This document shows positions 992-27,373 of a stretch of 64,000 nt of DNA, piece by piece (position 1 is the first letter of the stretch; every line of letters starts with the position of its first letter). The notes beneath the pieces were generated by a model. The model made no database searches, had not been told where the DNA came from, and saw only the letters and a program-made list of their open reading frames with translations. The position numbers and the translations under genes are program-made. The DNA is from an uncultured delta proteobacterium (GTDB lineage: Bacteria; Desulfobacterota; Desulfomonilia; Desulfomonilales; Desulfomonilaceae): assembly GCA_963789265.1 (NCBI GenBank), contig CAWBKB010000001.1, forward strand, positions 2,048,001 to 2,112,000, read 5' to 3'.

Positions 992-1068
992 GGCGGTGTA
1001 GCTCAGCAGGTTAGAGCATGCGGCTCATATCCGCAGTGTCCGGGGTTCAAGTCCCTGCACCGCCACCA
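992..1068 (+). tRNA. tRNA-Met(CAT), elongator-like; integration target
   Basis: GGCGGTG...CACCGCC-A-CCA acceptor stem, anticodon arm TGCGG-CTCATAT-CCGCA, GTTCAAGTC T-loop; G1-C72 pair argues against fMet (Ile2 not strictly excluded). Confidence 0.92.
1039..1068 (+). repeat. attL core (tRNA-Met 3' end)
   Basis: TCCGGGGTTCAAGTCCCTGCACCGCCACCA, identical to 16190-16219. Confidence 0.95.
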
Positions 1069-1118: not shown

Positions 1119-1138
1119 TTGTGTGCAAATTGTGTGCA
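1119..1138 (+). promoter_or_regulatory. Putative integrase arm-type sites (left), TTGTGTGCA x2
   Basis: Copies at 1119-1127 and 1130-1138 (11-bp period), ~50 bp from the core; matched by 16117-16136. Confidence 0.75.
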
Positions 1139-1197: not shown

Positions 1198-1317
1198 TAA
1201 AAATCGGTCCACTCGGTCCATTCGGGACTTTTGTTGTAATTTCGAGGGATTGCCGAAATTTAAAGCGGTCCACAAGTGGTCCACTTGGGGGGTAAAGTGG
1301 TCCACTGCTTGATTTTA
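1198..1317 (-). repeat. Left GTGGACC iteron array (inverted copy of 15960-16078)
   Basis: GGTCCA(C) at 1206, 1215, degenerate 1224, 1267, 1278, 1299. Confidence 0.85.
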
Positions 1318-2484
1318 TTACTGATTTGACTTTTTCAGGGGGGTGACAGTTGCTTTTCTTTGAATTGATCGAAGTGCGTTAACTTCCAGGTGGGAATATC
1401 GCTTGGTCTGCTCAAGATTGCTGTGCCCCAAAAACTTGGAGACTTTGTAAAGGGATTGGCCGTCGTTCACTGCTTGTGAGGCAATACTGTGGCGCGTGCC
1501 CTGATATAAGGTGATGTGAGCAACCCCAGCTTTTTCACGGGCTGCGTTCCATTGGTTCCTGCACCAATTCCGACCATGAGGCTTACCGGTCGAATCGCAA
1601 AAGACAAATCCCTCGGCATCCACATGGCGCGGTCTCGTCAAATAGAGTTCTTTCCAATTGGGGTCGAGAGGAACAATGCGAATTCGCTTTGACTTGGTAA
1701 ACGGCCGCAGGTCGTTATCAGCGAAGGCCCGCTGTATAGTCACTAGATCATTTTTTAAGTCGATATCGTGATGCTGAAGGGCTCGGGTCTCTCCGGGCCT
1801 CGTTCCGTGCGTAGCTGAGAAGAGGATCATAAGGTGCGCGTCAGCGGTCAGGTTCGCAAAGATAAGGTCCTGTGTCTCGACGTCCGCCCACTTCCACTCC
1901 GGGTCCGGCAGAGTACTTGCCCTGAATTCCATCGGGAACTTGGGGATTGCCTGTATAACCTCTTCCTCGTACGCATCCTTGAAGATCTTGTGAAGGGCGC
2001 TCATGATATTCCAGAGGCTTTTGGGGGAGTAATCAAGCGACAGGTAGAATTGTTTCAGGTCGCGCCCGCGGATCTCTGTAATGGGCTTCTCCTTGAAGTA
2101 GGGAAGGAATATGTTGCGCACGTAGTTCCTGAGCGAGCCCAAGTAGGTAATTGACAACTCATTCCGATCTTTGCGACGCTGGCAATTGCTCAGCCACTCT
2201 TCTGCGTAGACGGAGAAGCTGTGGAGTGATTTTTTCGTCTTGGAATAGAAGTCCGGGTCGAATGTCCCGCTTTGTATCTCGCCTGTTATTTGCGCCAGGG
2301 TATATTCGGCGTGCTCACGACTGTGAAAACTTCTGTGTTGCTTGTCGGCCCAGATCTCAATTCCGCCTGACAGACGGATTTTCCAGCGGTTGCCCCGATT
2401 CTTGTACACCTTCCCCAGAGCAGGCATTGTCCACACCTCCGGCGTTTGGGGGAAAGCATACTTTGTTTTTGACTTTGGGGGCAA
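1318..2484 (-). CDS. int: Tyrosine recombinase (phage integrase)
   Basis: 388 aa; catalytic motifs GTRPGE(R), TKSK, YQGTRH (H/YxxR), LGH, RY; N-terminal arm-binding-like region; adjacent to att. Confidence 0.93.
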   Translation of the reverse strand: MPPKSKTKYAFPQTPEVWTMPALGKVYKNRGNRWKIRLSGGIEIWADKQHRSFHSREHAEYTLAQITGEIQSGTFDPDFYSKTKKSLHSFSVYAEEWLSNCQRRKDRNELSITYLGSLRNYVRNIFLPYFKEKPITEIRGRDLKQFYLSLDYSPKSLWNIMSALHKIFKDAYEEEVIQAIPKFPMEFRASTLPDPEWKWADVETQDLIFANLTADAHLMILFSATHGTRPGETRALQHHDIDLKNDLVTIQRAFADNDLRPFTKSKRIRIVPLDPNWKELYLTRPRHVDAEGFVFCDSTGKPHGRNWCRNQWNAAREKAGVAHITLYQGTRHSIASQAVNDGQSLYKVSKFLGHSNLEQTKRYSHLEVNALRSIQRKATVTPLKKSNQ

Positions 2485-2883
2485 CTATTTTTCCGTTTTT
2501 GATTGCTCGCGGGAAAGTTCGCGCTCTAACCAAGCCAGATACTCGGGGAGCTGTTGATCCGTCAAACGCAGACCGGTTGCCTTGTGGATATTGCTCCTGA
2601 GCCTCTTAAACTGGCGTTTAAACCTGTAGTGTTGGCGTATTCGGCGGACACTTCCCTTGATCCACGCCAAGGGGCCTTGAGCGGGACACCAGCCCGGTAG
2701 TCGCAATATCTTGGCGAGGGCTTCCACCTGCACGGTAAGCCAGTGGTGAACAGCCCAGCCGTTTGGATCTCCCGATTCGCTGGACAGATAGGCTGGGTAT
2801 CCCAACAGCCGGGCCGCATCCCACGCGACCGCGGTGAGAAATGATTTGAACAACGACCATGCAAATTTCAGCCAGTCTCTCAT
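2485..2883 (-). CDS. Hypothetical protein
   Basis: 132 aa, abuts both neighbours in the leftward operon. Confidence 0.6.
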   Translation of the reverse strand: MRDWLKFAWSLFKSFLTAVAWDAARLLGYPAYLSSESGDPNGWAVHHWLTVQVEALAKILRLPGWCPAQGPLAWIKGSVRRIRQHYRFKRQFKRLRSNIHKATGLRLTDQQLPEYLAWLERELSREQSKTEK

Positions 2884-3164
2884 AGGTTTTCCCTCTCTTC
2901 CGAATAGCAGATGCGGCGCATGATATAATCAGCAGCTTCCCGTTGCGCCGGCGTAATTGGTCGTGGAACCGGATGCGCCCTTAGTATTTTCTCGAGTGCA
3001 CGTAGGGCAACGACGACCGTTTCAGCGGCCCGAACTGCCTTAGCGCCGGCTTCGGGTGCGTACCAATTTTCAACGTCGTGCATTAAAGATTCCGCTTCAC
3101 TTTGCAGTTGCCGAACCTTATCTATGATCTTTCGGAATTCTCCGCACGTATACCCGGGAGTCAT
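2880..3164 (-). CDS. Hypothetical helical protein (start MTPGYTCG)
   Basis: ATG at 3164 overlaps stop of ERCC4 gene (ATGA) with GGAGG-like RBS (GAGG); the longer 229-aa track ORF overlaps the ERCC4 gene. Confidence 0.6.
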   Translation of the reverse strand: MTPGYTCGEFRKIIDKVRQLQSEAESLMHDVENWYAPEAGAKAVRAAETVVVALRALEKILRAHPVPRPITPAQREAADYIMRRICYSEERENL

Positions 3165-3640
3165 GCTGACCTCGCTTCCAATCGGGATTGATGATCTCGC
3201 CAAAACCTCAACAAAATGCTCTCGCAGAGTGTTGCCGCAACTTCCTGGCTCCCAGCGAATAAGAAGGGTATGGCATATCTGTGCTGTAGCGCCACCACGG
3301 ATTCCCAGGCGCTCCTGGGGTTCATTTGGCTGCGGTAATTGCCTTGGAGTAGATCTGAATACCGGGCTTCCACGACCACATAGAAATGCAGGATGGACGC
3401 GGCCCGCTCCAATTCTCTCGTGAACCGTTCGCGGGAGACGGTTAAACAGCCGATCAAATCGTCCAGGGTTTTGCGTTCGATTGAAACCCAGCTTTGGAAG
3501 CCGTCCAGCGAATAATCGCCAGTCGGAAGGCACGTCCGGACGGTTGGCAGAGAAAAGTAATTTTCCCATGGCGCGGGGTCCGGTTCCCGCGTATCAATCA
3601 AGAAAAGCGGCAGAGGTTCGCTCTTGGCCATGCTACTCAC
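3161..3640 (-). CDS. ERCC4/XPF-family nuclease
   Basis: IDTRE, LPTGDY, IERKTLDDL motifs. Confidence 0.88.
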   Translation of the reverse strand: MSSMAKSEPLPLFLIDTREPDPAPWENYFSLPTVRTCLPTGDYSLDGFQSWVSIERKTLDDLIGCLTVSRERFTRELERAASILHFYVVVEARYSDLLQGNYRSQMNPRSAWESVVALQHRYAIPFLFAGSQEVAATLCESILLRFWRDHQSRLEARSA

Positions 3641-6085
3641 CCCTGTGCCGACTTAAATTGAGCGCAACTGGTAGCGTCCCGTCTCTCCACTGGCTTGGGG
3701 CAACACCACTCAAGATCACACTGGCTACACGCAAGACTTTGCTTCCCGAAATTACCAGGCACCACGTTGTCCGCTTGGCCTTCGGCCCTCAGTCCTATGC
3801 CGCGCCAAACCTTGACCCGAGCGCTTGCGGGGCCTACTTTGCCCTTTATAATGCCCGCTCTGCCTAGAAGATTTTCGTTGAACGGCGCACGCTTCAAGGG
3901 CTGCTCTCGCACATCCTCACAATGTGACTGATACGCCTTGTAAAGCTCCGAAACGGGTACAGTCGCGGAGATGTGGACCACACAATGCTTGTCCAGGAAA
4001 TCGCCTAGTTTATCGGCGTCTTGCCGGTAATCAGCAACTGCCAACTTGACCTTCTCGGGAGGATTGAGGCCGCTCTGTTGCCACTGCCGAAGCCCAGTCA
4101 GCATCCAGTTTAAAATGCCAGGCGCTTCGGCCTTCAGTTTGTCACCCAGAGTGACATCCTTATCCTCTCCCTCGAATTGCCGGGTAAATGGAATAAGTTG
4201 CGGGCGCCTCCAAAACGCCTCAGACGCGTCCCGCACTTCTGGTCGATTGTTCGCGCAAATGAAGACTTTGGCTTCAGGAGTAAACTCGAAAAATTCCCTG
4301 CGCAAAAAGCGAGCAGTAACCTTACCGTCTCCAGAGACTTTCTTGATAGTTTCGGCGTCGAATCGTTTCCCCTTCGGTTCAGAGGCAGACACGAACCGAG
4401 CGCCCCGGAGTCTGGCCAGGTCATTGCGAGGCGAATCGTCGTTTCTGCGCTCCATGAATGTGGCGGCGGGCGTATCAATAGCGTAGTCCCCCAATACCGC
4501 AGAGATGGTGTTTACAAGCACGGATTTGCCGTTACTGCCTTTTCCCCAGAGAAAAAACCAACATTGTTCGGTGGTCAGCCCGGTAAGGGCGTAGCCCAAC
4601 ACCCGCTGCATATAAGCGGTTAATTCGGCGTCGCCTTCGGTAATCTCTGTGATGAATTGATCCCACCGCGGGCAAACGGCCGCTGCGTCATAGTCAACAG
4701 GCGCTACCCTCGTAATGAGATCATTTGGCGAATGTGGTCGTAACTCGCCGGAGGCAAGGTCAACGGTGCCGTTCCTCACGTTCAAGAGCAAGGGGTTAGT
4801 ATCAAACACGTCTGGGAGTACACTGATTTCCTGCTCAGACGGGAGTAGCTGAATCATGGCGTTGATCTTGGAAACGCTCTCGCACTTCCGGGCGAACTTA
4901 GTCAGAGCTTCTTGCTGGTCCTTGTCCGTCAGATTCGCCGCTTCGCCGTGAAGTCCCCTTACTACGTCCTTGGCAGCGGCCTGAACCCGTGAAAGTTGAT
5001 CCTGCGCCCATCTAGTTCCGTCATAATGGTACCATCCTCCCAACTGTCCGCAGAACTTGATTTTGCCTTGAACAGCAGCGGCCAAGCGCTCAGCGTTTCC
5101 CATGTCGCTGAGGTGGTGGGAATCAGACTTGCCCTTTTCTTGAGCCTGGCGCCGGCGCTCGGCACGAATTGCCGATACGAATTCGTACTCCGGGGTCTCT
5201 TCCGCCAAATAAAGCAACGTGTAATATGTCCCCTCGCGACCCTCCTTCTCGAGGAAATCAGAGAGGTCCCCCCCTTCGGGCAGGTTGGGCAGGTTCAGGA
5301 TTTTGACGCTTTTCGCAAATCCGTGGAGGGTATCAGCTACCGCTCGGGCGTGACTCTGACCCGGTTCGTCATTATCGGGGATGATCCATACTACGCGATC
5401 TTTGAGAGGCTCGTGAATCGCATATTTTTTGACCAGGCCCGGCCATTTACTGCCATGCCGGTCAGCGCCCTGCGGAGGCGTCGTGGCCACAAATCCGAGA
5501 GACCGGGCCGCCAGAAACATCTTTCTCTCCTTCGACTACGAGAACCGGCTTTTCCGGATCCGCGGCCAACAACTCCGGCAGCCCGAATAGGACGCGAGGG
5601 ATGCCGTTTAGATCCCAGGCCCAACCGTCCTTGCCCTTTGGGTCCGGGCGCCGCACGGGGAAATCTCCTTTTGGGTCCGTCCTGCATACCTCATAGAGCA
5701 ATTTTCCTGACTCATCGTGGTACGGGTAGGTCGCGATGATCCTGGCGTACTGCTTCCGTTTTTTCTTGGAAGTTTTTCCTTTATCCGGCTTGGGCTTCCC
5801 GGCCCCTTCAGCGATCCAATTGCAGGCGTCCAGAAATGAGCACTCTTTGGCCGCCATAACGAATCCGATGGGGGGGTAATGCGTATTGCTGGAAAAATCA
5901 TGAGCGTGGTCTTCGTAGATTTTGAGGCTTTCAGTGCTCTCTGATGGATTCTCGATGCTCTTTATAAATCCGCTCGCATTAGGCTCTTTCCCCAGGCGAC
6001 GGCATATCTCGGGCAGGGAAATCAACTTATTGTAATAGTCGGTATTGACTTTGGAGTTCGCGTCAGGTAGGCTCTGATCTGACAT
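3637..6085 (-). CDS. P4/D5-type primase-helicase (degenerate CHC2-like N-term, TOPRIM, D5_N, SF3 helicase); one frameshift near 5516
   Basis: Track ORFs 5462-6085 (VLVVEGEKDV) and 3637-5520 (IIPDNDEPG, Walker A GKGSNGKS, RLRGARF, AFWRR) join as ...EKDVLAARSLGF if one T is removed. Confidence 0.88.
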
Positions 6086-6331
6086 TTATGGTTCCTCATA
6101 CTGCCCCGGCCGCCAACCGGGGTTTTGTTTATTTGGTTTTCGTTTCTCGGCCTTGAACTGTTTGGCCAGTACTAGCCACTCCGGAATGCTGCCTTCTGGC
6201 CAGTAAAATCGCCCGCGGGGGCTCACAAACGGAGTCGGAAATGCTCCTTGGTCCATGAGGATCAAAAGTTGCTCCACTGTGAGGTGCAACAAATCAGCGA
6301 GACCATGCACATCAATCCCGTTTGTCATCAT
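6086..6331 (-). CDS. AlpA/excisionase-like HTH protein
   Basis: 81 aa, LADLL...MDQGAFPTPF...RFYW...IPEWL pattern typical of AlpA; upstream of primase. Confidence 0.65.
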   Translation of the reverse strand: MMTNGIDVHGLADLLHLTVEQLLILMDQGAFPTPFVSPRGRFYWPEGSIPEWLVLAKQFKAEKRKPNKQNPGWRPGQYEEP

Positions 6332-6521
6332 TTTTCAGTTTGGCCCCTACAGCCCCGGCTCCGAAATAATGAGCACAGTGGCGGCTGAATTCCCGTAGTT
6401 CGTCACGCACATGTTTGAATTCCCCGCGCCTCATCCGCTCTATCGTTGACCGATGGATGCCCAGCAATATGGCCACACATGGCTGGGAGCATTCAGGCGG
6501 TATGTGTCGATCGGAATCCAT
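6312..6521 (-). CDS. Small HTH-like hypothetical protein
   Basis: 69 aa, SQPCVAILLGIHRSTIERM HTH-like segment; GAGG RBS. Confidence 0.5.
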   Translation of the reverse strand: MDSDRHIPPECSQPCVAILLGIHRSTIERMRRGEFKHVRDELREFSRHCAHYFGAGAVGAKLKNDDKRD

Positions 6522-6533
6522 CTCATTTCCTCG

Positions 6534-6767
6534 TCAGGCCGCGCCCTGGCCTGAGTTTTGGGTGATGTCAGGTACTCGCTCCATTAACCGCTGAAATGTC
6601 CATTCTGGGCCGAAGAATCGTTTCAACTTGCGCTCAAGGTTGCCTGGAGCACGCGTGAGCCAACCGTTTTCCAGTTTGGATAGAACCGATTGCTGCACTC
6701 CCAACTTCATCGCCAAATCCCTCTGACTGATTTGTCGTTGAAGCCGCATGAAAAGCAGGTAATTCAT
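6534..6767 (-). CDS. XRE/Cro-like HTH regulator
   Basis: SQRDLAMKLGVQQSVLSKLENG; AGGAGG RBS. Confidence 0.85.
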   Translation of the reverse strand: MNYLLFMRLQRQISQRDLAMKLGVQQSVLSKLENGWLTRAPGNLERKLKRFFGPEWTFQRLMERVPDITQNSGQGAA

Positions 6768-6785
6768 AAGGTCCTCCTATCGTTT

Positions 6786-6804
6786 GGTCACACTTACTGT
6801 GACC
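6786..6804. promoter_or_regulatory. Palindromic operator GGTCACA-N5-TGTGACC
   Basis: Perfect 7-bp arms; 16/19 match (reverse complement) to 7454-7472. Confidence 0.6.
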
Positions 6805-6830
6805 TGGTAGACAAAAAAAGGGGCTTACCC

Positions 6831-7439
6831 TCACCGGTTTATTAAAACATCCCCTCGGTAACCGTCAGTGCGTCGCAGGGATTTTGAGACAGTACGATCC
6901 AGGGTTACCCCTAGAGTTTTTTCGATATGTCGAGCAATCGCTTTCACGGAGATGAATGTTGCGCTCATCATAACCATGCCCTGCCAGGGATTCATGCCAA
7001 GCCACGCCTTAAACGTCTCGCGCGCCACATCCAGCGGTTCCACAACCATCATGCACGTGCGCACATTTTTAGCGGTCGTATGATGTTCTTTCGGGTTCTC
7101 GCGCTTTTCGCTTGATATGGATAAAGCGATACTCACGTCATAGCCCCATGCCCGGCAGTACTCCATGACTAGAATAGGCTCCCAGGCCAACGAGAGTTGA
7201 GGTTGTTGCCGGTCCGTCGCGTGGCCGATCAGCATTTGAATATGGTCCGCCCGGTATACTCCATAATGCGAAGCCTGGACTACGATTCCTGTGAGAATGG
7301 CCTTTGGCTCAGGGAATATCATATAGCCGCGAGAATCCCTGTCCACAGGCAGGACGCCTGCATCATCCCAATGTTTGATCGTTGTGCGGCCCACTTCAGG
7401 AAAGCAGTTTTGAATGTTCTTTGGCGAAAATGTCTGCAT
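6831..7439 (-). CDS. MerR-like HTH protein
   Basis: N-terminal VGRTTIKHWDDAGVLP...RDSRGYMIF resembles MerR wHTH. Confidence 0.6.
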   Translation of the reverse strand: MQTFSPKNIQNCFPEVGRTTIKHWDDAGVLPVDRDSRGYMIFPEPKAILTGIVVQASHYGVYRADHIQMLIGHATDRQQPQLSLAWEPILVMEYCRAWGYDVSIALSISSEKRENPKEHHTTAKNVRTCMMVVEPLDVARETFKAWLGMNPWQGMVMMSATFISVKAIARHIEKTLGVTLDRTVSKSLRRTDGYRGDVLINR

Positions 7440-7453
7440 AGTAACCTCGTTGT

Positions 7454-7472
7454 GTTCACAGTCAGTGTGACG
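7454..7472. promoter_or_regulatory. Second copy of TCACA-N5-TGTGA operator
   Basis: GTTCACAGTCAGTGTGACG just upstream of the 7439 start. Confidence 0.55.
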
Positions 7473-7583
7473 GGAAGAGACATATAGGAGAATTTTCTGA
7501 GTGTCAACGACTTTCTATGATTTGTTTTGGGTCTATTTTATTTTTTTGCCGTCCAGCTATAGAAGCCCGCACTGACAGTGGTT

Positions 7584-7599
7584 TGGCACACTTGTTGCT
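7584..7599 (+). promoter_or_regulatory. sigma54 (-24/-12) motif
   Basis: TGGCACA-CTTG-TTGCT. Confidence 0.55.
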
Positions 7600-7827
7600 G
7601 AAGGCTGTCAACGCAGATTTTAGGCAGTAATACCTTGAAATGTTTCGAGCGCTAGCAAACAACTACCAAGTCACCTCTCCAAACCCCTGCATGGAAGCCC
7701 ATAAGTGGCACCCTGCATGAAGAAAACAACTACCAGCCATTTCGCAGCGTCCATGATGTCCAATAATCTCGCGCGGTTATAAGGCCGCGGAGTGCATCAT
7801 TTATTTGAAATCATTACCATTTTGGGC

Positions 7828-7856
7828 TTGACTCGTCGCGCGCGGAAAGATATCAT
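7828..7856 (+). promoter_or_regulatory. sigma70 promoter for rightward XRE-like genes
   Basis: TTGACT-17 nt-TATCAT. Confidence 0.65.
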
Positions 7857-8004
7857 GCCCCCCATCTGCATCCAAAATCGCAATCCCCTCCCTTGTATCA
7901 GACTGGTACTCAGGTCCTATACTATAAACCGCAAAAGCCCCCGTTGGAGACAGGAGCTCCGTCGAGGGCTGATGCCACACCTATGCGTCAAAGGAAGGTG
8001 CAGC

Positions 8005-8472
8005 ATGGCAATAATCTATCGTTTCTCGAGCCGCGAAGCAATTTCAAAAGAAGCGCGGCCCACAACGCCATACGTTCCCCCTTGGGAGCAATACTCGCCC
8101 GTACGAAGGGTTATTTTGCCAGACTTTTTCTATCCGGATGTTGAGGTTGTTCGCCGGCAAGATTCTGGGTGCAAACTTGACTACAAAGGTTTCTACTTCC
8201 GATTGATAGTCTGTAAAAAGCCCGGAGAGAGCATCAGAGCGTTTTGCAAGAGAACTGGATATAGCAAGTCAGCGTTCTATCATTTGAGGCAAAATCCAAG
8301 TTCAGTTGCTTCAAACAGGCGTGTAAATCCAAAACTGGCCGACAACCTGGGGGTCGATCCAGGCTGGCTCGAATTGGGGTTGGATTTTGGCCCGCTGCGC
8401 GAGCGAGGTAAATGGCCGCACGTTGAACTGGCGCAAACCGCCGTACCCTCAAAAGTTCGATCCCTGCAATAA
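8005..8472 (+). CDS. XRE/cI-like HTH protein
   Basis: ATG after AAGGAAGG; SIRAFCKRTGYSKSAFY...KLADNLGVDPGWLELG. Confidence 0.65.
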   Translation: MAIIYRFSSREAISKEARPTTPYVPPWEQYSPVRRVILPDFFYPDVEVVRRQDSGCKLDYKGFYFRLIVCKKPGESIRAFCKRTGYSKSAFYHLRQNPSSVASNRRVNPKLADNLGVDPGWLELGLDFGPLRERGKWPHVELAQTAVPSKVRSLQ

Positions 8473-8537
8473 TTTCTTAACTCCCCGGTCTGCCTGGGCC
8501 GGGGTCCACACTGCCTATGCATAAAGGAAGGTGTAGC

Positions 8538-8925
8538 ATGTCAAAGTCTATCGTTTCCAAGGAAGCAAAACAAACTGTTCTTCGCGAAAGCGCCGATTAC
8601 CGAATAAGCCATTACTCTATAGAGGAACTCCGCGAATGCGGAGAGAAATTGAGGGCACTCCTGAACGAGATACTCCCTGGCAGGACGGTTCCGAACTGGG
8701 CGCAAGCGCTGGGGGTGAGCGAAAATTTGCTTTTAAGGGTTTCTGGGGGGCACAAAAGGCTTCACGATAACCGACATGTTGAGCGTCACCCAAGGCTTAG
8801 TCCGTCTCAGTACTCCGGCGTGGGACGTGGCAAGTTGGTGGTGGGTCGGCCCCGCTGCGGAGGAGGTGAGATTGTGGAGAGCTCGCGAAACCGATTCTGA
8901 GGAAGTTCCCGTGCCAGTGCAGTAA
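8538..8925 (+). CDS. XRE-like HTH protein, probable frameshift near the G6 run 8745-8750
   Basis: TVPNWAQALGVSENLLLRV HTH; alternative frame continues TKGFTITDMLSV...EEVPVPVQ* to TAA 8923-8925, followed by a GC hairpin. Confidence 0.5.
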
Positions 8926-9092
8926 CCTTTACATCCCCGCTCTTCGGGGCGGGGACCCTCCCTCCCCCGTACCCGATCAGCATACGAAATTCCCGATTTT
9001 GACAAATAGTGCTACGATTACCCTCCGGGCGATCCCCGATCCGGCCGGCGCCGGGGAAGTGAGAAGGTGGGGCGTAACACGATCTCCAATGG

Positions 9093-9419
9093 CTACAGAG
9101 AGAGCACACAGAGGTCGTTGTTCTTGGGCCGGGGCTTCACGGTACGCTTAATCTCCGCTTCCATTCGATCCTCTGCCATGTCCAGGTCGTACCGCGCCTG
9201 TGCGTTCAACCAAAACTGCGGAGTGGTCCTGAAATACCGCCCCAGCCGCATGGCCGTGTCTGCCGTGACGCTGCACTTGCCGTTGAGAATACGATTTACG
9301 GTTGAAACACTAATCCTCAGAGCTTCGGCAAGCTTGTGCTGAGTCAAGCCCAAAGGGTCCATGAATAGTTCCTTTAGTGTCTCGCCCGGGTGAATAGGCG
9401 GTAATTTTCTCGTTTTCAT
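9093..9419 (-). CDS. higA: HigA-family antitoxin
   Basis: PPIHPGETL...LGLTQHKLA...TADTAMRL...FWLNAQARYDL. Confidence 0.92.
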   Translation of the reverse strand: MKTRKLPPIHPGETLKELFMDPLGLTQHKLAEALRISVSTVNRILNGKCSVTADTAMRLGRYFRTTPQFWLNAQARYDLDMAEDRMEAEIKRTVKPRPKNNDLCVLSL

Positions 9420-9461
9420 AATGTTTTTTCCTATAGATTCTATAATATATTTGTTTCATAC

Positions 9462-9740
9462 TCAGTGATAATCGACCAGTTCTAGATCGTGAATGTATCC
9501 ATCCTTCCAAGCGAAGCACAATCGCCAGTTGCCACTGACCCGTAAGCTATGCTGACCCCTCCGCTGCCCCTTCAATGCCTCCAGCCCCCCACCGGGAATA
9601 GCGGCCAAGTCTTCCAGGCGCACAGCATCTTGCATCGCTCCAAGCAACAGCCTAAGTCTCCTGTGAAGGTGCTCAGGACTCCTTGAATGCTTCCGGTTAG
9701 ACAGCTTCTCCAGTTCCTTGTCTGCAACGCTCTTAATCAT
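9462..9740 (-). CDS. higB: HigB/RelE-family toxin
   Basis: MIKSVADKELEKL...LEALKGQRRGQHSLRVSGNWRLCF...LVDYH; toxin upstream of antitoxin. Confidence 0.92.
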   Translation of the reverse strand: MIKSVADKELEKLSNRKHSRSPEHLHRRLRLLLGAMQDAVRLEDLAAIPGGGLEALKGQRRGQHSLRVSGNWRLCFAWKDGYIHDLELVDYH

Positions 9741-9746
9741 GTATAT

Positions 9747-9775
9747 ATCATATTGCGCAACGCGGGACAATGCAA
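9747..9775 (-). promoter_or_regulatory. higBA promoter (likely leaderless transcript)
   Basis: TTGCAT-17 nt-TATGAT, 6 nt before ATG; TTGCGCAA palindrome in spacer. Confidence 0.65.
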
Positions 9776-9806
9776 GTTCAAAAATGAAAGACATCCAATC
9801 GGCAGG

Positions 9807-10043
9807 CTACCACCCCTTATTCCACCACGGCCCGATCTGCCAGAACGATGTAACCCCTTCTCTGCGGTTGAAAACGGGGAATCCGGCCGCCCGGAGTGCT
9901 TCCAGGTCCCGGTAAATCGTTCGGTATTTTGCCTCGAGTACCCGACAGAGTTCTTCCACCTGGCAACCCGATGGATTTGCCGACAGGTAGCGGACCAGCT
10001 TCCACTGACGAATTAGTGATGTGTTTGGGTGGTCTTTTGCCAT
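9807..10043 (-). CDS. Stand-alone wHTH resembling the N-terminus of WYL-domain regulators
   Basis: LIRQWKLVRYL...VEELCRVLEAKYRTIYRDLEALRAAGFPV; ends before any WYL domain. Confidence 0.7.
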   Translation of the reverse strand: MAKDHPNTSLIRQWKLVRYLSANPSGCQVEELCRVLEAKYRTIYRDLEALRAAGFPVFNRREGVTSFWQIGPWWNKGW

Positions 10044-10057
10044 GGTACGATAGGCAG

Positions 10058-10567
10058 TTAATTATCGTGTTGCGTCTCGCTTGCTTGCTTCCCCTGGAAG
10101 TCGAGAATCCAATCCGTGAGTTTTGAGCGGTCTACCAATTCGCAGCCGTTCGATTGCGCCAGGGTTCGGGCTCCCTTTGTGAAAAGGCTGTTCGTCACAA
10201 CCTGCGCCTCGCTGCATTTATAGTAGGTCTTTCCTGCTACCGCGTCCGATATTGCCCTTCGACTCACCGATTTACCGTGACGCTTGCATTGAATCGCAGT
10301 TCTGGTGCCGTTCGATACTGCTATGAGGTCAACGCCAAGGTCACCGCTGTCAGGCGTAAATTGTACCCGCTTCCCCTGATGCTGGAGCAAACGTGCAACG
10401 TAATTCTCAAACTCGCGCCCGCTCATGAGATCGACCCTGGAAATGTCCAGAGCCCTTATCCTTCGCTCTATCCTCCGCCGTTGCTTCACGCCCCTCCAAA
10501 CGCCCCAGGCGACCACGAGTACTATGCCGAGTAAGAAGAGAAGAGTCAATAAGCTGCTGTCGTCCAT
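10058..10567 (-). CDS. Membrane-anchored Mrr-family restriction endonuclease
   Basis: N-terminal TM helix; SGREFE, SGDLGVDL, IQCKR, VVTNSLFT. Confidence 0.88.
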   Translation of the reverse strand: MDDSSLLTLLFLLGIVLVVAWGVWRGVKQRRRIERRIRALDISRVDLMSGREFENYVARLLQHQGKRVQFTPDSGDLGVDLIAVSNGTRTAIQCKRHGKSVSRRAISDAVAGKTYYKCSEAQVVTNSLFTKGARTLAQSNGCELVDRSKLTDWILDFQGKQASETQHDN

Positions 10568-11051
10568 CTGAGCCCCCCTGAATAAAGTTACGACTCCGCG
10601 CGAACGCAATCAAGAGAAATCTGTGTCGCCTCAACTGCCTTCACAGGACCCGCGTGGTTGCGATTTCAGGCGAGAGATAGGGATTGATGCCCGGAGAGCC
10701 TGAACCTCGCTGAGATTTGACTACACGGAGCCAGTGGCGCACCTTCTTGGCTACCTTCTGTTCACTGAACATGCAGAGAAGAATTAGACCGTCCAGGGTG
10801 AAGTACCGTTCGCGAGTCGGAGGACGATGTACATCATGTGTAGGCGATACGCCTATTCGAGTGGAATTATAGTCGAATCCGGCCCGTATCAGCCAGGATG
10901 TTTATTTGGGTGCAATCATTGTCGAATTCGTCCTTATGGGTTTTGAGCCCAGCCGCAACGAGAAACGACCGGGCTCTTGCCCTGGCTCGGAAGGGTTTGA
11001 CCAGGGCGCCCAGGCCGCCGAAAACTACTTGGAAAACGGCGGCCTATCGAG

Positions 11052-11121
11052 TTATCCACAACCCTCCGGGGGACCGAGAAGTTATCCACAGGTTACTTCC
11101 GGGAGGGAAAAGTTATCAACA
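11052..11121 (+). promoter_or_regulatory. Cluster of three DnaA boxes
   Basis: TTATCCACA 11052-11060 and 11082-11090, TTATCAACA 11113-11121; 30/31-bp period. Confidence 0.75.
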
Positions 11122-11158
11122 GCCCCTGCCTCCGCAGGAGGTGCGAAAAAATTACGCA

Positions 11159-12175
11159 TCATGAGTACGAAACCTCCGTGGGATCATTGGTGGAGACGAT
11201 TTTGGGGGCGTTGTAGGCAGCATAACGAAGAAAATAATTGGCGAGTCGATCCCGAACCGCTTGAAAAAATTCTGAGATGTCGATCTTGGGTTTTTCTTGG
11301 ATTATGTGCCGCGTTCCTTGCAAGAGTCCTGCTGCCCCATTCACCACAAACTGTGTCTCGCCTGCTGTCAAAATGATGCAGTTGTTATCAGCGTCCAGGA
11401 TGATCGAGGGGCCAATATCCTGATTCTCTTTTGCGGACAGGATCATGACCCGTCCCTTGTCATCTTGCGCCCATCTGTAGATTCCTTGCCCGTTGAGATC
11501 AACCTCGCCAGTGATCGCGACTCCGCCGGCGATCAGTTCAGAGGGCTTCCAGGAGGTTCCTGCCATAACGGATTTAACGCCTCGAACCTCGCCTTTGCGG
11601 TACTTGCTCTCGTCGTTCTTTTGCTCCTGCTGGTCTTCCGTTTGGCCGGGCGCCACCGAAAAATGTCCTGCCCCTGTCCAATCCAGCAATGCTAGAGTTT
11701 CTGCTTTGCCGTTGTCATCCATCAGGAGGGTATGGCCGGCCTCGCTCTTCAGGAGTCTTATGCGAGTACCCTGGCGCACATCATTATCGCTGTAGACCTT
11801 AGCTTCCGCGGGAATCATCTCCGATTTGTCATCCTTAGAAGCGTTCCACGCAGAGAACGGGAAGACAATCGGGCTCGCATAATAGTCACCGCCAGGGAAG
11901 GCCACAGTAACGAGTTCCTTCGGGACAGGGCACCACCACATTCCCATGTCGCCATTACCGGCCGAACCGCCCATCGGCAACCAGGACATTTCGCACCAGT
12001 TCGACCAATTCCTGTAGTCTCCGTCTTCGAGCAGGCTTCGGATCTCAACTCGGACGCGACCTTTTCGTAACGGGTCTTTCAGGTCCTTGACGACTCCCAC
12101 GTGGCAACTTGCACCTTGGAGAATGTGGTGCGCCTCGCGCGGAATCGGGATTTTATTTTGTCGGGGGTCCGTCAT
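11159..12175 (-). CDS. Gp5/VgrG-type baseplate central spike protein (OB-fold)
   Basis: GVVKDLKDPLRKGRVRV...WSNW...GMWWCP...VTVAF.GGD...PIV and KSEAGHTLLMDD motifs of the gp5/gpV N-terminal OB-fold and beta-helix start. Confidence 0.82.
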   Translation of the reverse strand: MTDPRQNKIPIPREAHHILQGASCHVGVVKDLKDPLRKGRVRVEIRSLLEDGDYRNWSNWCEMSWLPMGGSAGNGDMGMWWCPVPKELVTVAFPGGDYYASPIVFPFSAWNASKDDKSEMIPAEAKVYSDNDVRQGTRIRLLKSEAGHTLLMDDNGKAETLALLDWTGAGHFSVAPGQTEDQQEQKNDESKYRKGEVRGVKSVMAGTSWKPSELIAGGVAITGEVDLNGQGIYRWAQDDKGRVMILSAKENQDIGPSIILDADNNCIILTAGETQFVVNGAAGLLQGTRHIIQEKPKIDISEFFQAVRDRLANYFLRYAAYNAPKIVSTNDPTEVSYS

Positions 12176-12272
12176 TGGATTGCACTCCTTAGAAGAAAAT
12201 CCCGCCCCACGGCCATAGGAATGGTTGAGACTCCGGGAGGCGGGCCTATCCGCCTGACGAGCGGGTAAAACG

Positions 12273-12650
12273 TTAAAATTCCAAAGTTTCGACTGGTTGT
12301 CCTACGTCGGTTGCGTGTGTAATCGCCATGCCATGTTTGACCTGACCATCGGCAACCGGAAAAACGGCATTCCCAGCGCCAAAACAGAAGGGGCCGACTG
12401 GTACGGCAGCGCCACTAACCCTCGTGCGCCTCAACACGAAGCTTGATACCACCACGCATGTTTCGGGATCTAAGCAGCCGTAATTGCTGGCTGAATGCCG
12501 TGAAATCACTTCACCGACAACATTTGCACTCCCCTGGCTAGAAATCGGTTGCACCGACATGTCGCCGATGATTTCAACGATGTCTCCTGCCTGAGTCTCT
12601 GGCGTGCATGTGAACATGTCAGACAGCGGTTCACCTGCGACTTTATTCAT
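12273..12650 (-). CDS. Putative capsid cement/decoration protein
   Basis: 125 aa beta-rich, AGDIVEI...VVGEV...SGAAVPVG...HGMAITHATDVGQPVETL; resembles DUF2190/beta-tulip cement proteins (by eye). Confidence 0.5.
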   Translation of the reverse strand: MNKVAGEPLSDMFTCTPETQAGDIVEIIGDMSVQPISSQGSANVVGEVISRHSASNYGCLDPETCVVVSSFVLRRTRVSGAAVPVGPFCFGAGNAVFPVADGQVKHGMAITHATDVGQPVETLEF

Positions 12651-12858
12651 TTTGCCCCCCGATCTTGACCCATCCTTTTGTAGCCAACTTTTGCACCGCC
12701 TCTCGAATGTCTTCCTCCATGAGCCTATCAGCAGCATCCTTCTTTCGGTTTGCCATCTCAAGTTCCGTATCCCGCGGGCCCGCTCCGTCTGTGCAGTGCT
12801 CGAAGCTGAACACCGTTTCGCCGTCGATCACTTCAGCATGTGGTATTGTCGCATTCAT
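12643..12858 (-). CDS. Small hypothetical protein
   Basis: 71 aa, overlaps both neighbours, GGAG RBS. Confidence 0.55.
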   Translation of the reverse strand: MNATIPHAEVIDGETVFSFEHCTDGAGPRDTELEMANRKKDAADRLMEEDIREAVQKLATKGWVKIGGQNE

Positions 12859-13011
12859 CGGTTGTTTCTCCTCGCCTTGGCCACGTTCCGATAGTAGGTA
12901 CGGCGCTCTTCCAGCAGATCCACGTCCTGACAGGTCTCAATGTGGCGTCTGGTCCTTAATCTCTTCACGGCTGAGCTTCAACTGAACATTAACGCTGTCA
13001 GCTTTGAGCAT
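12855..13011 (-). CDS. Small ORF, probably frameshifted
   Basis: MLKADSVNVQLKLSREEIK + frame-shifted RRHIETCQDVDLLEERRTYYRNVAKARRNNR*; TGATG and ATGA overlaps couple it to both neighbours. Confidence 0.4.
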
Positions 13012-13805
13012 CAGGCAACCTCGGCTTTGGCCAGCGCCGCCTCAGCCCGCGGAAGGTATGCTCTTATGGCGGCCCGGACCATGCACTCATCTTCATCCGC
13101 TCCACTCGGTAGCCGCGTGCTCAGACCCCATGGCATCGACCATGTGTAACGGGTTATCTCCCCCTTGCTCCTGTCAAGCTCACCGCCGAGCGGCCGTAAG
13201 GTGTCACCGGCTTTACGTTTGGATAGAAAACCCATCACGGCCGTCTCTAAATGTTTTTCCAGACAACCGCCCAGGTCGCGGAGTCGTTCCAAATCATTCA
13301 TATACACATTAAGATGGAATCCGACCCGGCGACCGGAAAACATCGGCCGAATGTGGCCGCAATGAGCTTTGGCATACTTTTTGACAGCGGCCCTCATGAA
13401 AAATGCCCTCTCGTCCGGCTGAACCGGCAAAAACTCGTCTGCCAAGTCGCTGGGGACAACCCAGATGTAATTCGTGCACTGCTCAGACGCCCGGAAATTA
13501 GGCACGTTCAGCTTACCCTCAGTGAACACCGACTCGGGGCTCTTCGGCTGGTAATCTCTCACAGCGGCCCAGAAATGGTCCGACAGAGGATCGTCTAGTT
13601 CCCTGAACTTCTCGAAATAGCTGTTTTCGTACGCGACCATAATCCTGGTCAGACCCGGCACCCGAGGCGGCTCTACCGGCTCCGGCAACTGCGCCGCATA
13701 GAATGATACCGCTTTCTCAGCCGCATCCACAATGTGGCCCGTGGCCGCCAACCTCCGGTAATCTTCGTCCGAAACTCGTAATACCAAACCCAAATCGTGC
13801 GCCAT
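13011..13805 (-). CDS. Protein with five tandem ribbon-helix-helix-like units
   Basis: Repeated strand-helix-helix ending in EKAVSFY / WAAVRDY / RAAVKKY / ETAVMGFL / RAAIRAYL; AGGAGG RBS. Confidence 0.6.
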   Translation of the reverse strand: MAHDLGLVLRVSDEDYRRLAATGHIVDAAEKAVSFYAAQLPEPVEPPRVPGLTRIMVAYENSYFEKFRELDDPLSDHFWAAVRDYQPKSPESVFTEGKLNVPNFRASEQCTNYIWVVPSDLADEFLPVQPDERAFFMRAAVKKYAKAHCGHIRPMFSGRRVGFHLNVYMNDLERLRDLGGCLEKHLETAVMGFLSKRKAGDTLRPLGGELDRSKGEITRYTWSMPWGLSTRLPSGADEDECMVRAAIRAYLPRAEAALAKAEVA

Positions 13806-14102
13806 AAAGCCTCCTGAAAAAACCCAATAATGGTTGACTGCTCATTATCAAAGACTCGCTCGATGTCAAGGAAAATTAACCGCGCAAGTTAATCCAGTTT
13901 AATACGTTTAATGAGTTAAGAGAAAAAATATCAAAAACGGCATATACGGGGGAGAGATTGCCCTAAAATCGCCGACCCCGGGGGGGGGCCTTTTCAGACA
14001 TAGGGGGGGGTATACTTGTGGTACCATCGCGCCACGCTTGGTGTTTCAGTGCGGGGTGAGCTTGTGCGGTGAAACTTCTATCGTGCTCTGGTCTGTTGTA
14101 GA

Positions 14103-14420
14103 TCAACTCTCGTCGTCGTCGTCCAGCGCTGCCTTCGCTACGAACGCGTCAATCCTTTTGATCAACGGCTCCCAGCTTTGCGGCATGTATCCGTCCAAAC
14201 ACGCCATGATCATGAGGTTTATTCCCTCGGTTATAGCCTCCCGAGCTTCAACGAGAAGGGAAATTGCATCGTCGGTGCCTTCCCCGAGATATCCATCAAG
14301 GGCCTTTTGGCGGTTGGCGGGTAACTGAGCAACCAGCTTTTTCAATTCGATCATTGCCGGGTGCTTCGAGATGTCTCCGGGCTTTTTGCGAACGTTGGTT
14401 CCATCGTTTGCATTTTTCAT
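14103..14420 (-). CDS. Hypothetical protein, acidic C-terminus
   Basis: ATG at 14420 overlaps recombinase stop (ATGA); GGAGG RBS. Confidence 0.6.
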   Translation of the reverse strand: MKNANDGTNVRKKPGDISKHPAMIELKKLVAQLPANRQKALDGYLGEGTDDAISLLVEAREAITEGINLMIMACLDGYMPQSWEPLIKRIDAFVAKAALDDDDES

Positions 14421-15121
14421 GCGGCCCTCCTGTAAATCTTGGCAACCAGGACATCCGACCATACAGCGCCAGTCCGGGTCTGATAACCTTCCTGGTTCAA
14501 TTCCCGCGCTATCGCCCTGAATCCATGTCCATCTGCTTTGAGCTCGTGAATACGTGCAATGATCTTCTGCTCGGTAGGCTCCGGGACCAATACTTTGAGC
14601 GGTCGATCTTTGCCGGCCTGAACCTTTTCTTCAACCCCGAATCCAAAAGGAACATGACCGCCTGTCTTCTCGTTCCGCTCTTGCTTGTCTTTCATGATGG
14701 CCAGGGTGCGCTCACTCGTCACGTCACGTTCGAACTGAGCAAAGGCGCTCATCATACTGAAAAACAACTTACCTGCGGCACTGGTAGTGTCGATGGACTC
14801 GCTGACACTGATGAAGTCCCGGCCCAGCTTGTTCAACTTCTCAGCCGTTGCAATAGAATCCTGAGTCGAACGGAAAGCTCGGTCTAGTTTGAACACGATC
14901 AGACCGGCAACTTTGCCACTGTAAACCTCATCTAGGCAGGCTTTGAATCCGTGGCGTAGGTGGATACTCTTAGCGGATACACCGTCGTCGTAATAGATGC
15001 AGTTCAGTTCGAGGCCCTTGGCCTGAGCATAGGCTGAGATTCGCTCGCCCTGCATTTTCAAGGACAAGCCGTCTTTGGCCTGCTTCGCGCTGCTCACCCG
15101 AACATAACCGTTGACTTTCAT
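14417..15121 (-). CDS. Serine recombinase (resolvase family with short C-terminal recombinase domain)
   Basis: GYVRVSS..Q, DDGVSA, FKLDRAFR, SERT, GGHVPFGF, IARELN..G..TRTG..W. Confidence 0.93.
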   Translation of the reverse strand: MKVNGYVRVSSAKQAKDGLSLKMQGERISAYAQAKGLELNCIYYDDGVSAKSIHLRHGFKACLDEVYSGKVAGLIVFKLDRAFRSTQDSIATAEKLNKLGRDFISVSESIDTTSAAGKLFFSMMSAFAQFERDVTSERTLAIMKDKQERNEKTGGHVPFGFGVEEKVQAGKDRPLKVLVPEPTEQKIIARIHELKADGHGFRAIARELNQEGYQTRTGAVWSDVLVAKIYRRAA

Positions 15122-15454
15122 AATCCATCCTCCCTTTTCTTTCGTCTACCCCTCTATACTGCACATTCCATGCCACTCTTCGCCCCGCGAGGCCACAATA
15201 TACAGCCTCCAAAGCGGCCCGTCGCGCAGATATGGTATGGTAAATCTCCTCGGGCCTGCTACAATGCGGAAATAATGCCGTGAGTGTCCGAAAAGTAAGG
15301 CAGAGTGTAGCTTATTGGGATCGCCCGACTTTTGGGGCAGTGTTTGAGCATAAAAAGCCCATTAACAGCCACTTTGGGTATTTAAAACCGCTCCATGAGA
15401 GGCCCAGGAAGGCGAGACCGCGTACTTTGCCAGGATCGGAGCAACCCTAGATGT

Positions 15455-15619
15455 TGGCACGAAGATTGCTTCTTATTATATGGCACGGTAATTGCTAAGA
15501 CATGGACCCGCAAGAGTGGCCCGGGCCTTGCATTATTAGCAGGTAGTATGCCATGAGACTATTTTGGCACGTGGCTAGAATTCTGTGACTAATTCCCTCT
15601 AAATGGCCCGCTTCCTGCA
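15455..15619. promoter_or_regulatory. Cluster of sigma54 -24/-12 motifs
   Basis: 15455-15470 +, 15481-15496 +, 15517-15532 +, 15538-15553 -, 15604-15619 +, degenerate 15565-15580 +. Confidence 0.75.
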
Positions 15620-15959
15620 TGTATTCCACGATAACACACCGCTTCTCACAATCGCTGATCTGAAACTCCGAGTAAACTAGGTGCATATACACCATATTTG
15701 CATCGAAATTAGAGCGCTGACATGGCAATGCTGGAGAGGCTTTGACCAGGTGGTCATCGGTAACAGCAGGCTCAGTGAGGAGTTAGAGAGGTTCCCAAAC
15801 TGGCCCGAGCGGTCAGTTTTCCGTGTTTCGCAAGAATCGCAATGGAAGTATGCATTGACGCATGGACCGGACAAGAAAACCGCGGGATTCCGCGGAGGCG
15901 TGGACGTGAGGAACCGGCAATCGCCACACTCTGAAAGTTTCTATAAACCTACTTCTTCA

Positions 15960-16078
15960 ATGAAATCAATTAGTGGACCGTTTTTTATAAAAGTGGACCG
16001 TTTGTGGACCACTTTGCATTTTTATAAGTCTCTGGAATCAGGATATATGGACCGAGTGCACCGAGTGGACCGTTTTTT
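15960..16078 (+). repeat. Right GTGGACC iteron array
   Basis: Copies at 15973, 15993, 16004, 16047, 16056 (GTGCACC), 16065. Confidence 0.85.
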
Positions 16079-16116
16079 TATTCCTAACATAAAGTAAAAA
16101 AGCATAAGAAAAGGGG

Positions 16117-16136
16117 TTGTGTGCAGGTTGTGTGCA
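16117..16136 (+). promoter_or_regulatory. Putative integrase arm-type sites (right), TTGTGTGCA x2
   Basis: 16117-16125 and 16128-16136, ~53 bp from core. Confidence 0.75.
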
Positions 16137-16189: not shown

Positions 16190-16219
16190 TCCGGGGTTCA
16201 AGTCCCTGCACCGCCACCA
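16190..16219 (+). repeat. attR core
   Basis: Identical 30 bp to 1039-1068. Confidence 0.95.
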
Positions 16220-26802: not shown

Positions 26803-27373
26803 GAATCTATTGCCGGGGTGCCATGACAGTCACTGGGCTCTGAAGCACCGGTCCACTTTCTGTCGCCCCGATGAGGCTCAAACGGCCGGCGTCCCGGAGG
26901 GATTTTAGATAGTGGACCGGTCCTGCGCAGAATGCGGGATTGCCGGGAGACTTCTTTTAAAGGATAATTCTTGATTTGCTCTCCTGAATCGAATGCTTGC
27001 TCCAGGCTAACGTTGTTCATGGACGCGTTCAACGATATGTGATAGATAGGGCTTCGATGTGGCTCCGGTACGTGCTCGCACCAGAGATTCTTATCAGCAA
27101 TCGTGCGGAAACGGAAGAGCAGTTTTCAGAAACCGCAGGAATCTAAATGCTGTGCCGGGTCGGCCGCGTGTGCGGAGCGTACGGAGGTCTCATACGAATG
27201 CGCCGTCAAAGATGTGACAATCCTGACAGGATACGGTTGGGCAGTCCTGCGTTTCGCGCGGTACTGGATCACCCCTACATTTCCCCGCGTAGGCGGACTT
27301 GACGATGGCGGGCAAGATGCCCACCCCCTGGGGGCTACGGTTCCTCGCGTAGGCGGACGTGACGACAACGCAC

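Follow-up and report, generated by a model that had tools for sequence, protein, structure and literature searches.

What is the role of two short arrays of repeated words that lie, as mirror images of each other, just inside the two ends of an integrated island? The question is raised by a 64,000-nucleotide stretch of DNA from an uncultured soil delta proteobacterium of the Desulfomonilaceae (assembly GCA_963789265.1, contig CAWBKB010000001.1, positions 2,048,001 to 2,112,000), here called the window, which holds a 15.1-kb island integrated in a tRNA-Met gene and bounded by 30-nt direct attachment (att) repeats at 1039-1068 and 16190-16219. An initial annotation of the locus had proposed that the arrays are the two halves of a primase-helicase origin that is split by integration, so that replication is coupled to excision. 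In our assessment, the explanation that best accounts for the locus, and that we hold to be rather probable, is that the terminal arrays are iterons of the island's own primase-helicase, that the attachment site of the excised circle (attP) lies inside the origin, and that full firing needs the excised junction. The idea of a bipartite origin was supported in every comparison run, namely the arrays of relatives, the word of a homologous origin, and the mutual exclusivity of terminal and gene-adjacent sites; the coupling to excision we infer from geometry.

Two Mirrored Arrays at the Island Ends

Each end of the island carries six GTGGACC-type sites, and the coordinates, the mirror-image arrangement and the spacings initially given for them proved exact. 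The left sites are found on the minus strand at 1299-1305, 1278-1284, 1267-1273, 1222-1230, 1215-1221 and 1206-1212 (spacings 21-11-43-9-9), and the right sites start on the plus strand at 15973, 15993, 16004, 16047, 16056 and 16065 (20-11-43-9-9). The window contains 14 exact copies of GTGGACC, compared with 7.25 +/- 2.46 in shuffled sequences, none of which (0/100) reached 14. Eight of these copies fall within 1206-1305 (minus strand: 1206, 1267, 1278 and 1299) and 15973-16071 (plus strand: 15973, 15993, 16004 and 16065), accompanied by copies with one mismatch at 1215-1221, 16047-16053 and 16056-16062, and by the degenerate sixth left site (1222-1230), which matches 5/9 positions as read by eye. 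Copies with one mismatch were not enriched across the window (165 versus 167 expected), and the 9-mer AGTGGACCG was not enriched genome-wide (54 matches versus 57 for the reversed control word), so the signal consists of the clustered, mirrored arrangement and not of the word itself. Inside the island, no 7-mer clusters other than the end arrays reach four copies.

As a gapless inverted repeat, the two arrays can be matched over 88 nt with 70% complementarity, and their alignment over ~135 nt gives a mean column identity of 81%. Site columns match in 37/45 cases and the other columns in 25/43, the sites being the better kept. The outermost site is flanked at both ends of the island by a common motif, AATGAAATCAA on the right and AATAAAATCAA on the left (reverse complement). 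This flank had been described as the partial IHF-like start of both arrays; that it is common to both holds, but its likeness to the IHF consensus, WATCAANNNNTTR, does not, since both flanks read TGG at the last three positions, where the consensus has TTR.

In the integrated state, the arrays are 14.7 kb apart and divergent relative to the island interior. Because the right array points toward the right attachment site (attR) and the left array toward the left one (attL), they converge only when read across attP in the excised circle, where the segment between them measures 281 bp. The order predicted for the circle, in which mirrored arm sites would lie between attP and each array, is thus upheld for the convergent arrays but not for the arm sites: the four copies of TTGTGTGCA found between the arrays and the core are direct repeats, all on the plus strand. 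In the centre between the arrays, the right 45 nt are 75.6% A+T and the left 45 nt 53%, for a window background of 47%. The coordinates of these features are collected in Table 1.

Promoter and terminator scans of both island ends gave counts that were not above shuffles. A G+C-rich hairpin followed by a T-run, terminator-like, was seen just inside the right array (15880-15895, minus strand; count not above shuffles), where it would stop transcripts coming in from the attR side. Outside the island, 10.6 kb to its right, an intergenic segment (26839-26929) holds a perfect 11-nt inverted repeat, ACCGGTCCACT ... AGTGGACCGGT. The 9-mer iteron word of the island is present in both arms, in divergent orientation and at a distance of 51 nt; the repeat may have arisen by chance, or may be an operator of the host or a site that the initiator of the island recognises.

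Table 1. Features of the island and its borders (positions within the window).
Feature	Position	Strand	Basis or remark
tRNA-Met (CAT), integration target; 3' end = att core	992..1068	+	ARAGORN
attL core, 30-nt direct repeat; last 30 nt of tRNA-Met	1039..1068	+	exact 30-mer found twice
Left TTGTGTGCA pair, probable integrase arm-type sites	1119..1138	+	11-bp spacing, 50 bp from core
Left array, six GTGGACC-type sites (putative iterons), pointing toward attL	1204..1306	-	
Tyrosine integrase, 388 aa, reading toward attL	1318..2484	-	Pfam Phage_integrase 2.3e-18; PHROG 1
ERCC4-type nuclease, 159 aa	3161..3640	-	Pfam ERCC4 4e-10; PHROG 3490; homologues in L031-L034 and L036
Primase-helicase: Toprim / D5_N / SF3 ATPase / C-terminal winged helix and Cys-rich tail	3637..6085	-	
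C-terminal 170 residues of primase-helicase, RFX-like winged helix, candidate iteron reader	3640..4149	-	
First of two small helix-turn-helix (HTH) genes, weak HTH_17 (AlpA-like) match	6312..6521	-	E 0.0089, below cut-off
Xre-type small HTH gene	6534..6767	-	HTH_3 7.4e-8
Small serine recombinase, resolvase/invertase type, 234 aa, kept in relatives	14417..15121	-	Pfam Resolvase 1.8e-34
Right array, six sites (putative iterons), pointing toward attR	15972..16073	+	
A+T-rich tract adjoining innermost right iteron, candidate melting region	16074..16118	.	75.6% A+T vs 47% in window
Right TTGTGTGCA pair, probable integrase arm-type sites	16117..16136	+	11-bp spacing, 53 bp from core
attR core, copy of tRNA 3' end	16190..16219	+	repeat search, exact 30-mer

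Conservation of the Arrays in Related Islands

Relatives of the island's integrase were found in 12 of 70 genomes of the same family (the window's own included), which also make up the order-level sample, and at 79 metagenome loci; the phylum sample added only two distant integrases, with 38% identity, and a scan of genome contigs with the integrase alone found no relative. The loci examined, designated here by L numbers, comprised 18 genome loci and the closest 29 of the 79 metagenome loci. Two layouts were recognised among them. In class A, which is the layout of the window, the integrase gene is followed by an array, an 11-bp-spaced pair and the full tRNA (5/18 genome loci and 2/29 metagenome loci). 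In class B, which accounts for most loci, the pair comes immediately after the integrase stop codon and the core next, leaving no room for arrays. The interior of the island is oriented oppositely relative to the att core in the two classes.

Homologous elements had been expected to keep the terminal arrays, and both complete class-A relatives, L032 and L033, do so. These islands are associated with tRNA-Gly, encode integrases 51-52% identical to that of the window, and have att repeats 16.8 and 15.7 kb apart, respectively. Mirrored arrays are present at both of their ends, with the word GAC(A/G)GTA and a triple spaced by 8-9 bp nearest the core, and 12 of 13 (L032) and 10 of 11 (L033) GAC[AG]GTA matches per 20 kb lie within the end arrays. 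Each of these arrays also has one inverted iteron beside an A+T-rich stretch of 30 nt.

Origins of the Related Primase-Helicases

The primase-helicase was found in 24 of the 70 family genomes (the window's own included), many of them without the window's integrase. It was observed that two opposed sets of a short word, placed around a short spacer, lie directly behind the primase-helicase stop codon in all eight loci inspected, and in L036 as well. In a strict screen, in which both strands had to carry two or more copies of an exact 7-mer inside 350 nt, such a structure was detected at 10/24 distinct primase-helicase loci versus 9/689 control windows, and at neither of the two class-A loci included (the window and L034). 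The origin words vary by locus, and include GACTCGA, GGGACAA, GACAGTA, GTGAACA, GTGGCG and GGGTCTA. At L156 and L158, GTGAACA / TGTGTTCAC iterons are located just downstream of the primase-helicase genes, and we take this word to be a close likeness of the type-1 word of P4.

The nearest full-length relative outside the window's genus, encoded at L152, is 47.7-50% identical to the island's primase-helicase, and its origin word is GTGGACCG. GTGGACC occurs there at 8230 and 8239 on the plus strand and at 8318 and 8327 on the minus strand, that is, two copies per side with 9-bp spacing, in the convergent orientation that the arrays of the window take only across attP. This origin starts 44 nt after the stop codon, has a spacer of 72 nt, and holds four of the nine GTGGACC matches in 18 kb. 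The L152 genome has no match to the window's integrase, and no tRNA was found in the 18 kb examined. In this element (G049; L152:11614-11754), 12 CCTCGAG words were also seen densely clustered just downstream of the resolvase gene.

In the window, an origin directly downstream of the initiator gene is lacking: the next gene overlaps the primase-helicase stop codon, leaving no intergenic space behind it, and three genes lie in the 2.3 kb that separate this stop from the left array. In L031 and L032, the primase-helicase gene is directly followed by that of the integrase. Thus, class-A islands have no origin behind the primase-helicase, the end arrays are their only iteron-like clusters, and end arrays and gene-adjacent origin are mutually exclusive among the elements examined. 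L036, whose integrase (69%) is the closest one from an element available whole, shares with the window's island the tRNA-Met core and the set of nuclease, primase-helicase and resolvase genes. Opposed GTGCC(A/G)TTT sets follow its primase-helicase gene, and arrays are absent from its attP. Around the excised circle of the window's island, the order would be primase-helicase (followed by nuclease and integrase), origin and resolvase, and at L152 it is primase-helicase, origin and resolvase; from this agreement, the attachment site of class-A islands would lie within the origin.

Internal 7-mer clusters (TACCGCA / TACCACA, at ~9.0-9.3 kb in L035 and L036) were also considered as origins and dropped, since the cluster of L036 lies inside an open reading frame (ORF) of 253 aa and a proper opposed-iteron structure was found behind the L036 gene. 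A scan of genome contigs for GTGGACCGNGTGGACC gave at least 120 loci, mostly single matches in G+C-rich genomes, and brought no independent support; several of the multi-copy loci among those listed are spaced in multiples of 9, resembling coding repeats, and none of the seven best-clustered loci among the matches listed has a homologue of the island proteins. At one locus of a Dehalococcoidia metagenome-assembled genome (L176:3960-4050), six GGTCCA(C) direct repeats with 9-23-bp spacing were noticed, with no homologue of the island proteins within 4 kb.

A Winged Helix as Candidate Reader of the Arrays

The primase-helicase comprises Toprim, D5_N and DUF5906 ATPase domains and a Pox_D5-type C-terminus. 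Its C-terminal 170 residues were modelled as a winged helix (block-mean predicted local distance difference test values of at least 90 over residues 51-120), with RFX DNA-binding domains as the best fold matches (1dp7: E 1.2e-4, template modelling score 0.81 on the target, root-mean-square deviation 1.9 A over 74 columns). Among proteins of solved structure, entry 7OLA is the closest in sequence to the whole protein (E 3.3e-10), and it is identified as SaPI5 PriRep5 in a study of SaPI Rep (PMC9371898).

It had been asked whether the iteron covaries with the C-terminal domain of the primase-helicase. An alignment of 11 C-terminal domains revealed that the wing reads RVK(V/S)W in all three GTGGACC-type proteins (window, L034 and L152) and in none of the eight others, with RVK at the start of the second wing strand. 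Overall identity does not follow the word: L153, as similar overall as L152, has the wing RIHTW and the word GACTCGA. A phylum search with the C-terminal domain returned 24 distant loci with at most 40% identity, none with an RVK wing and none with GTGGACC iterons; as it adds no RVK protein, the covariation rests on three proteins, and in this very small sample the joint occurrence of wing motif and word is suggestive. The wing of L156, RVRSW, was seen to be near the RVK of the GTGGACC types.

A Proposed Origin Interrupted by the Attachment Site

From the sequence comparisons, it is likely that both arrays are iterons of the primase-helicase, whose winged-helix C-terminal domain would read them. 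The attachment site (arm pair, 30-bp core and arm pair; ~190 bp) would then lie between two opposed iteron sets. In the prophage, these would form two pads of six iterons each, 14.7 kb apart and facing outward. With its arm domain bound to the TTGTGTGCA pairs, and probably aided by a small HTH protein, the integrase would act at the core to excise a circle in which the right pad would be followed by a 43-nt gap (most of the A+T-rich tract of 45 nt), an arm pair, the 30-bp core, the second arm pair and the left pad. The pads would thereby converge across 281 bp holding attP and the A+T-rich tract, and the primase-helicase would load one hexamer per pad, which the six sites of each array fit, and fire bidirectionally. 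Multimers would be reduced by the resolvase, by analogy with the resolution system of SGI1 (PMC12217951), and a possible role of the ERCC4 nuclease is the processing of branched intermediates.

The need for both pads, and with it the dependence of firing on excision, is suggested by geometry, and we give it slightly less than an even chance. A further step is tentative: excision might act as a physical licence that makes the pads convergent for bidirectional firing, and the initiator might hold attL and attR together for excision or, during replication of the circle, mask attP from re-integration, doubling as a directionality factor.

Several observations weigh against a split origin of this kind. 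Both ends are represented for just three elements (the window's island, L032 and L033), all of them kin. The primase-helicases of L031-L033 belong to another subtype (~26-29% identity over partial matches), that of L032, the sole one of the three scanned, shows just Toprim families in Pfam, and the resemblance of their word to the iterons of L155 may be a coincidence. The right array lies ~270 bp upstream of the resolvase gene in both L032 and L033. Identity over the C-terminal 160 residues, compared all-versus-all, is not sorted by word (window and L152, 41%; window and L153, 42%, with different words). The attP centre, of which only the right flank is clearly A+T-rich, spans 281 bp, versus 72 bp in L152 and 102 bp quoted for the SaPI5 origin in a preprint that also proposes a melting point within one iteron set (bioRxiv 10.64898/2026.10.17.759575). 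No attP or attB joint was found in the contigs of three soil-metagenome runs, which come from one study, have unusable depth and are uninformative on excision. The primase-helicase is also broken into two frames in the window, exactly where a contig of run X1 lacks one base. Lastly, the inner flank of each array stays with it in the prophage, and the helicase might therefore be loaded on half-origins in situ.

This last point leads to the explanation that survives best among the alternatives, although we regard it as unlikely: the arrays would be iterons of the primase-helicase that do not need excision, acting as self-sufficient half-origins or as cis enhancers like crr of P4, with replication starting in situ and the ends possibly looped. 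P4 alpha is said to loop ori and crr, and P4 has its type-1 iterons at two places 4.5 kb apart, with crr 117 bp from the attP arm pair. The inner flanks kept while integrated include the right A+T-rich tract, and the inverted iteron beside an A+T-rich 30-mer in the arrays of L032 and L033 resembles the intra-set melting point proposed for SaPI5. However, the prophage arrays face away from each other and from the interior, in the canonical origins of this initiator family 60-150 bp separate two convergent sets, and the island has no third iteron cluster inside that could serve as "ori".

Probable Arm-Type Pairs and Recombination Sites

The initial annotation had also named sites of the integrase, of a recombination directionality factor or of the resolvase as alternatives for the arrays; all of these fit the distribution worse than iterons. 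As regards the integrase, its arm-type sites are probably the TTGTGTGCA pairs, judging from sequence and position. At ~50 bp from the tRNA-derived core, most of the integrase loci examined show an 11-bp-spaced pair that, by eye, is (T)GTNTGCA-like or GTCAGTA-like, and a strict screen (an exact 8-mer at an 11-nt offset) detected one at 17/45 integrase loci versus 9/225 control windows. Repeats are thus found near the core on both arms of the island, with similar pairs across the integrase family, including relatives without arrays. This recurrence and the layout of the P4 arm repeats indicate that the pairs are likely integrase arm sites and that the arrays belong to something else. In many class-B loci (L048, L049, L052, L056, L057, L063, L065 and L071), a second 11-bp pair, often with another word, was seen ~45 nt past the partial tRNA core, which suggests tandem related islands in one tRNA, or contigs with the attP of circular forms.

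The arrays might still be accessory sites of recombination, either extra integrase arm sites or sites of an AlpA/HTH_17-like excisionase that shape the intasome. On both arms they are no more than ~250 bp away from the core, the island has a gene with a weak HTH_17 match, and direct spacing of 9-11 bp resembles arrays of the Xis/Cox/Apl type. Nevertheless, we consider this improbable. The closest integrase relatives (65-69% identical, with the same core) are of class B and have 11-bp pairs only, and the N-terminal regions of the integrases of GACAGTA-type islands are close to that of the window, while the array words are unrelated. Moreover, the arrays occupy both arms, distal to the arm pairs, and not one arm between core and arm sites as an excisionase would require, and the same word forms the origin-like structure behind the L152 primase-helicase, with no related integrase in that genome and no tRNA in the 18 kb examined.

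Res-like or inversion sites of the small serine recombinase are the least credible explanation, very improbable in our view: six sites in ~100 bp do match the size and number of a Tn3-type res site, the resolvase gene is conserved and close to the right array in L032 and L033, and classes A and B differ in interior orientation, but the array sites are direct repeats and not dyads, two inverted res sites are no substrate for resolution, 850 bp separate array and resolvase gene in the window, and the iterons of L152, L153 and L154 are ~2.4, 3.9 and 1.0 kb from the resolvase gene and within 50-100 nt of the primase-helicase stop codon.

Gene Content of the Island

The core genes of the island are all on the minus strand, and its cargo includes a HigB/HigA pair, an Mrr-type nuclease and a gpV-like OB-fold protein. 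The element can be described as a satellite-like integrative island of the type of P4 and the phage-inducible chromosomal islands (PICIs). Its two small HTH genes (6312-6767) are candidates for an excisionase and a regulator, and the small serine recombinase probably resolves multimers, by analogy with SGI1.

In the window, two ORFs (5462-6085 and 3637-5520) make up the primase-helicase. A tblastn comparison with the fused 801-aa homologue of L034 placed the change of frame at ~5507-5514, and the X1 contig, independent and of low depth, has one letter fewer at 5515 and another at 8740. The position of the frame change and the letter missing at 5515 indicate that the split is probably a single-base assembly error and not a dead gene. 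As single-base indels seem to be present in the window assembly, short split ORFs need careful reading here.

A small ERCC4 nuclease was seen beside or near the primase-helicase in class-A and class-B islands (window, 3161-3640; L036:1495-2031; L032:12607-13077), and we read it from sequence as a putative replication or recombination accessory; no counterpart in SaPI or P4 is known to us. The tRNA-Gly relative L032 carries a phage capsid gene (L032:8563-9882; Phage_capsid_4, 2.8e-9) and a DUF5131 gene, where the window has the gpV-like OB-fold protein instead. Cargo and morphogenesis genes vary widely among islands with the common integrase, primase-helicase and resolvase core.

Significance of a Proposed Origin Divided by Integration

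Satellites and integrative elements must silence their origin while integrated and fire it promptly after excision. To our knowledge, the known solutions are transcriptional, through repressors or through promoters and operons joined at the circle junction. If the proposed explanation is true, an origin halved by integration would be a switch at the DNA level that needs no regulator, and would explain how harmful over-replication in situ is avoided. Mirrored arrays just inside attL and attR, with none behind the primase-helicase gene, would also provide a signature with which active islands and initiator-iteron pairs could be searched for in metagenomes. Furthermore, L036 and the present island offer a natural experiment, in which the same integrase type and the same tRNA-Met core are combined with a gene-adjacent origin in the former and with an attP-straddling origin, as proposed, in the latter.

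Comparison with Known Systems

Full-text literature searches, whose scope left aside the subscription-only literature on P4 and SaPI origins, turned up no published iteron origin split by attP among the titles and abstracts listed. The closest known systems are the replicons of Staphylococcus aureus pathogenicity islands (SaPIs) and other PICIs. SaPI Rep binds iterons via a C-terminal winged helix, and the 6-12 iterons follow rep closely, divided equally between the two sides of an A+T-rich centre (PMC9371898). In the SaPI5 preprint (bioRxiv 10.64898/2026.10.17.759575), these are iterons L1-L6 and R5-R1, with a hexamer presumed on each side and a wing that reads the major groove; Gram-negative PICIs always have two iteron sets flanking an A+T-rich region, according to PMC6092414. 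Judged from its sequence and model, the island's initiator resembles these Rep proteins as a self-loading SF3 helicase, here fused to a primase, that carries a winged helix at its C-terminus, and there are two opposed sets of putative iterons with about six sites per side and, between them, a stretch that is clearly A+T-rich on its right flank. Unlike SaPIs, PICIs and the other members of the family, in which the origin is directly behind the rep gene with a centre of 60-150 bp, the sets are located at the island ends, with a 281-bp centre that holds attP and the arm sites, and integration parts the halves by 14.7 kb.

In P4 (NC_001609), type-1 iterons are found in crr (4291-4590), directly behind alpha, and in ori (9086-9809), and the attP arm repeats are adjacent same-strand pairs on both sides of the core. 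P4 therefore resembles the island in its primase-helicase initiator, in having octamer type-1 iterons at two separate places, and in the same-strand arm pairs flanking the core, which is the TTGTGTGCA layout. It differs in that its iteron regions lie on one side of attP, internal and unsplit by integration, whereas the island arrays are mirrored on both sides of attP. With Tn3/gamma-delta res sites, the arrays have in common a length of ~100 bp, six protein-binding words and a resolvase gene nearby, but they are composed of direct repeats instead of three dyads, and in the relatives they are associated with the primase-helicase gene and not with the resolvase.

The assembly of a function solely at the attP junction of an excised circle has precedents in ICEclc, for which a fusion of the promoter Pcirc to int at the circle junction is described in PMC5812530, and in SNJ2, for which PMC13107129 reports a replication operon reconstituted at the attP junction on excision. 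In those elements a promoter or an operon is joined, whereas the joined unit proposed here would be the origin DNA itself. The island would work like a SaPI, PICI or P4 replicon, and we group its initiator with theirs; its proposed origin departs from that family in not adjoining the rep gene and in having attP in place of a simple A+T-rich centre.

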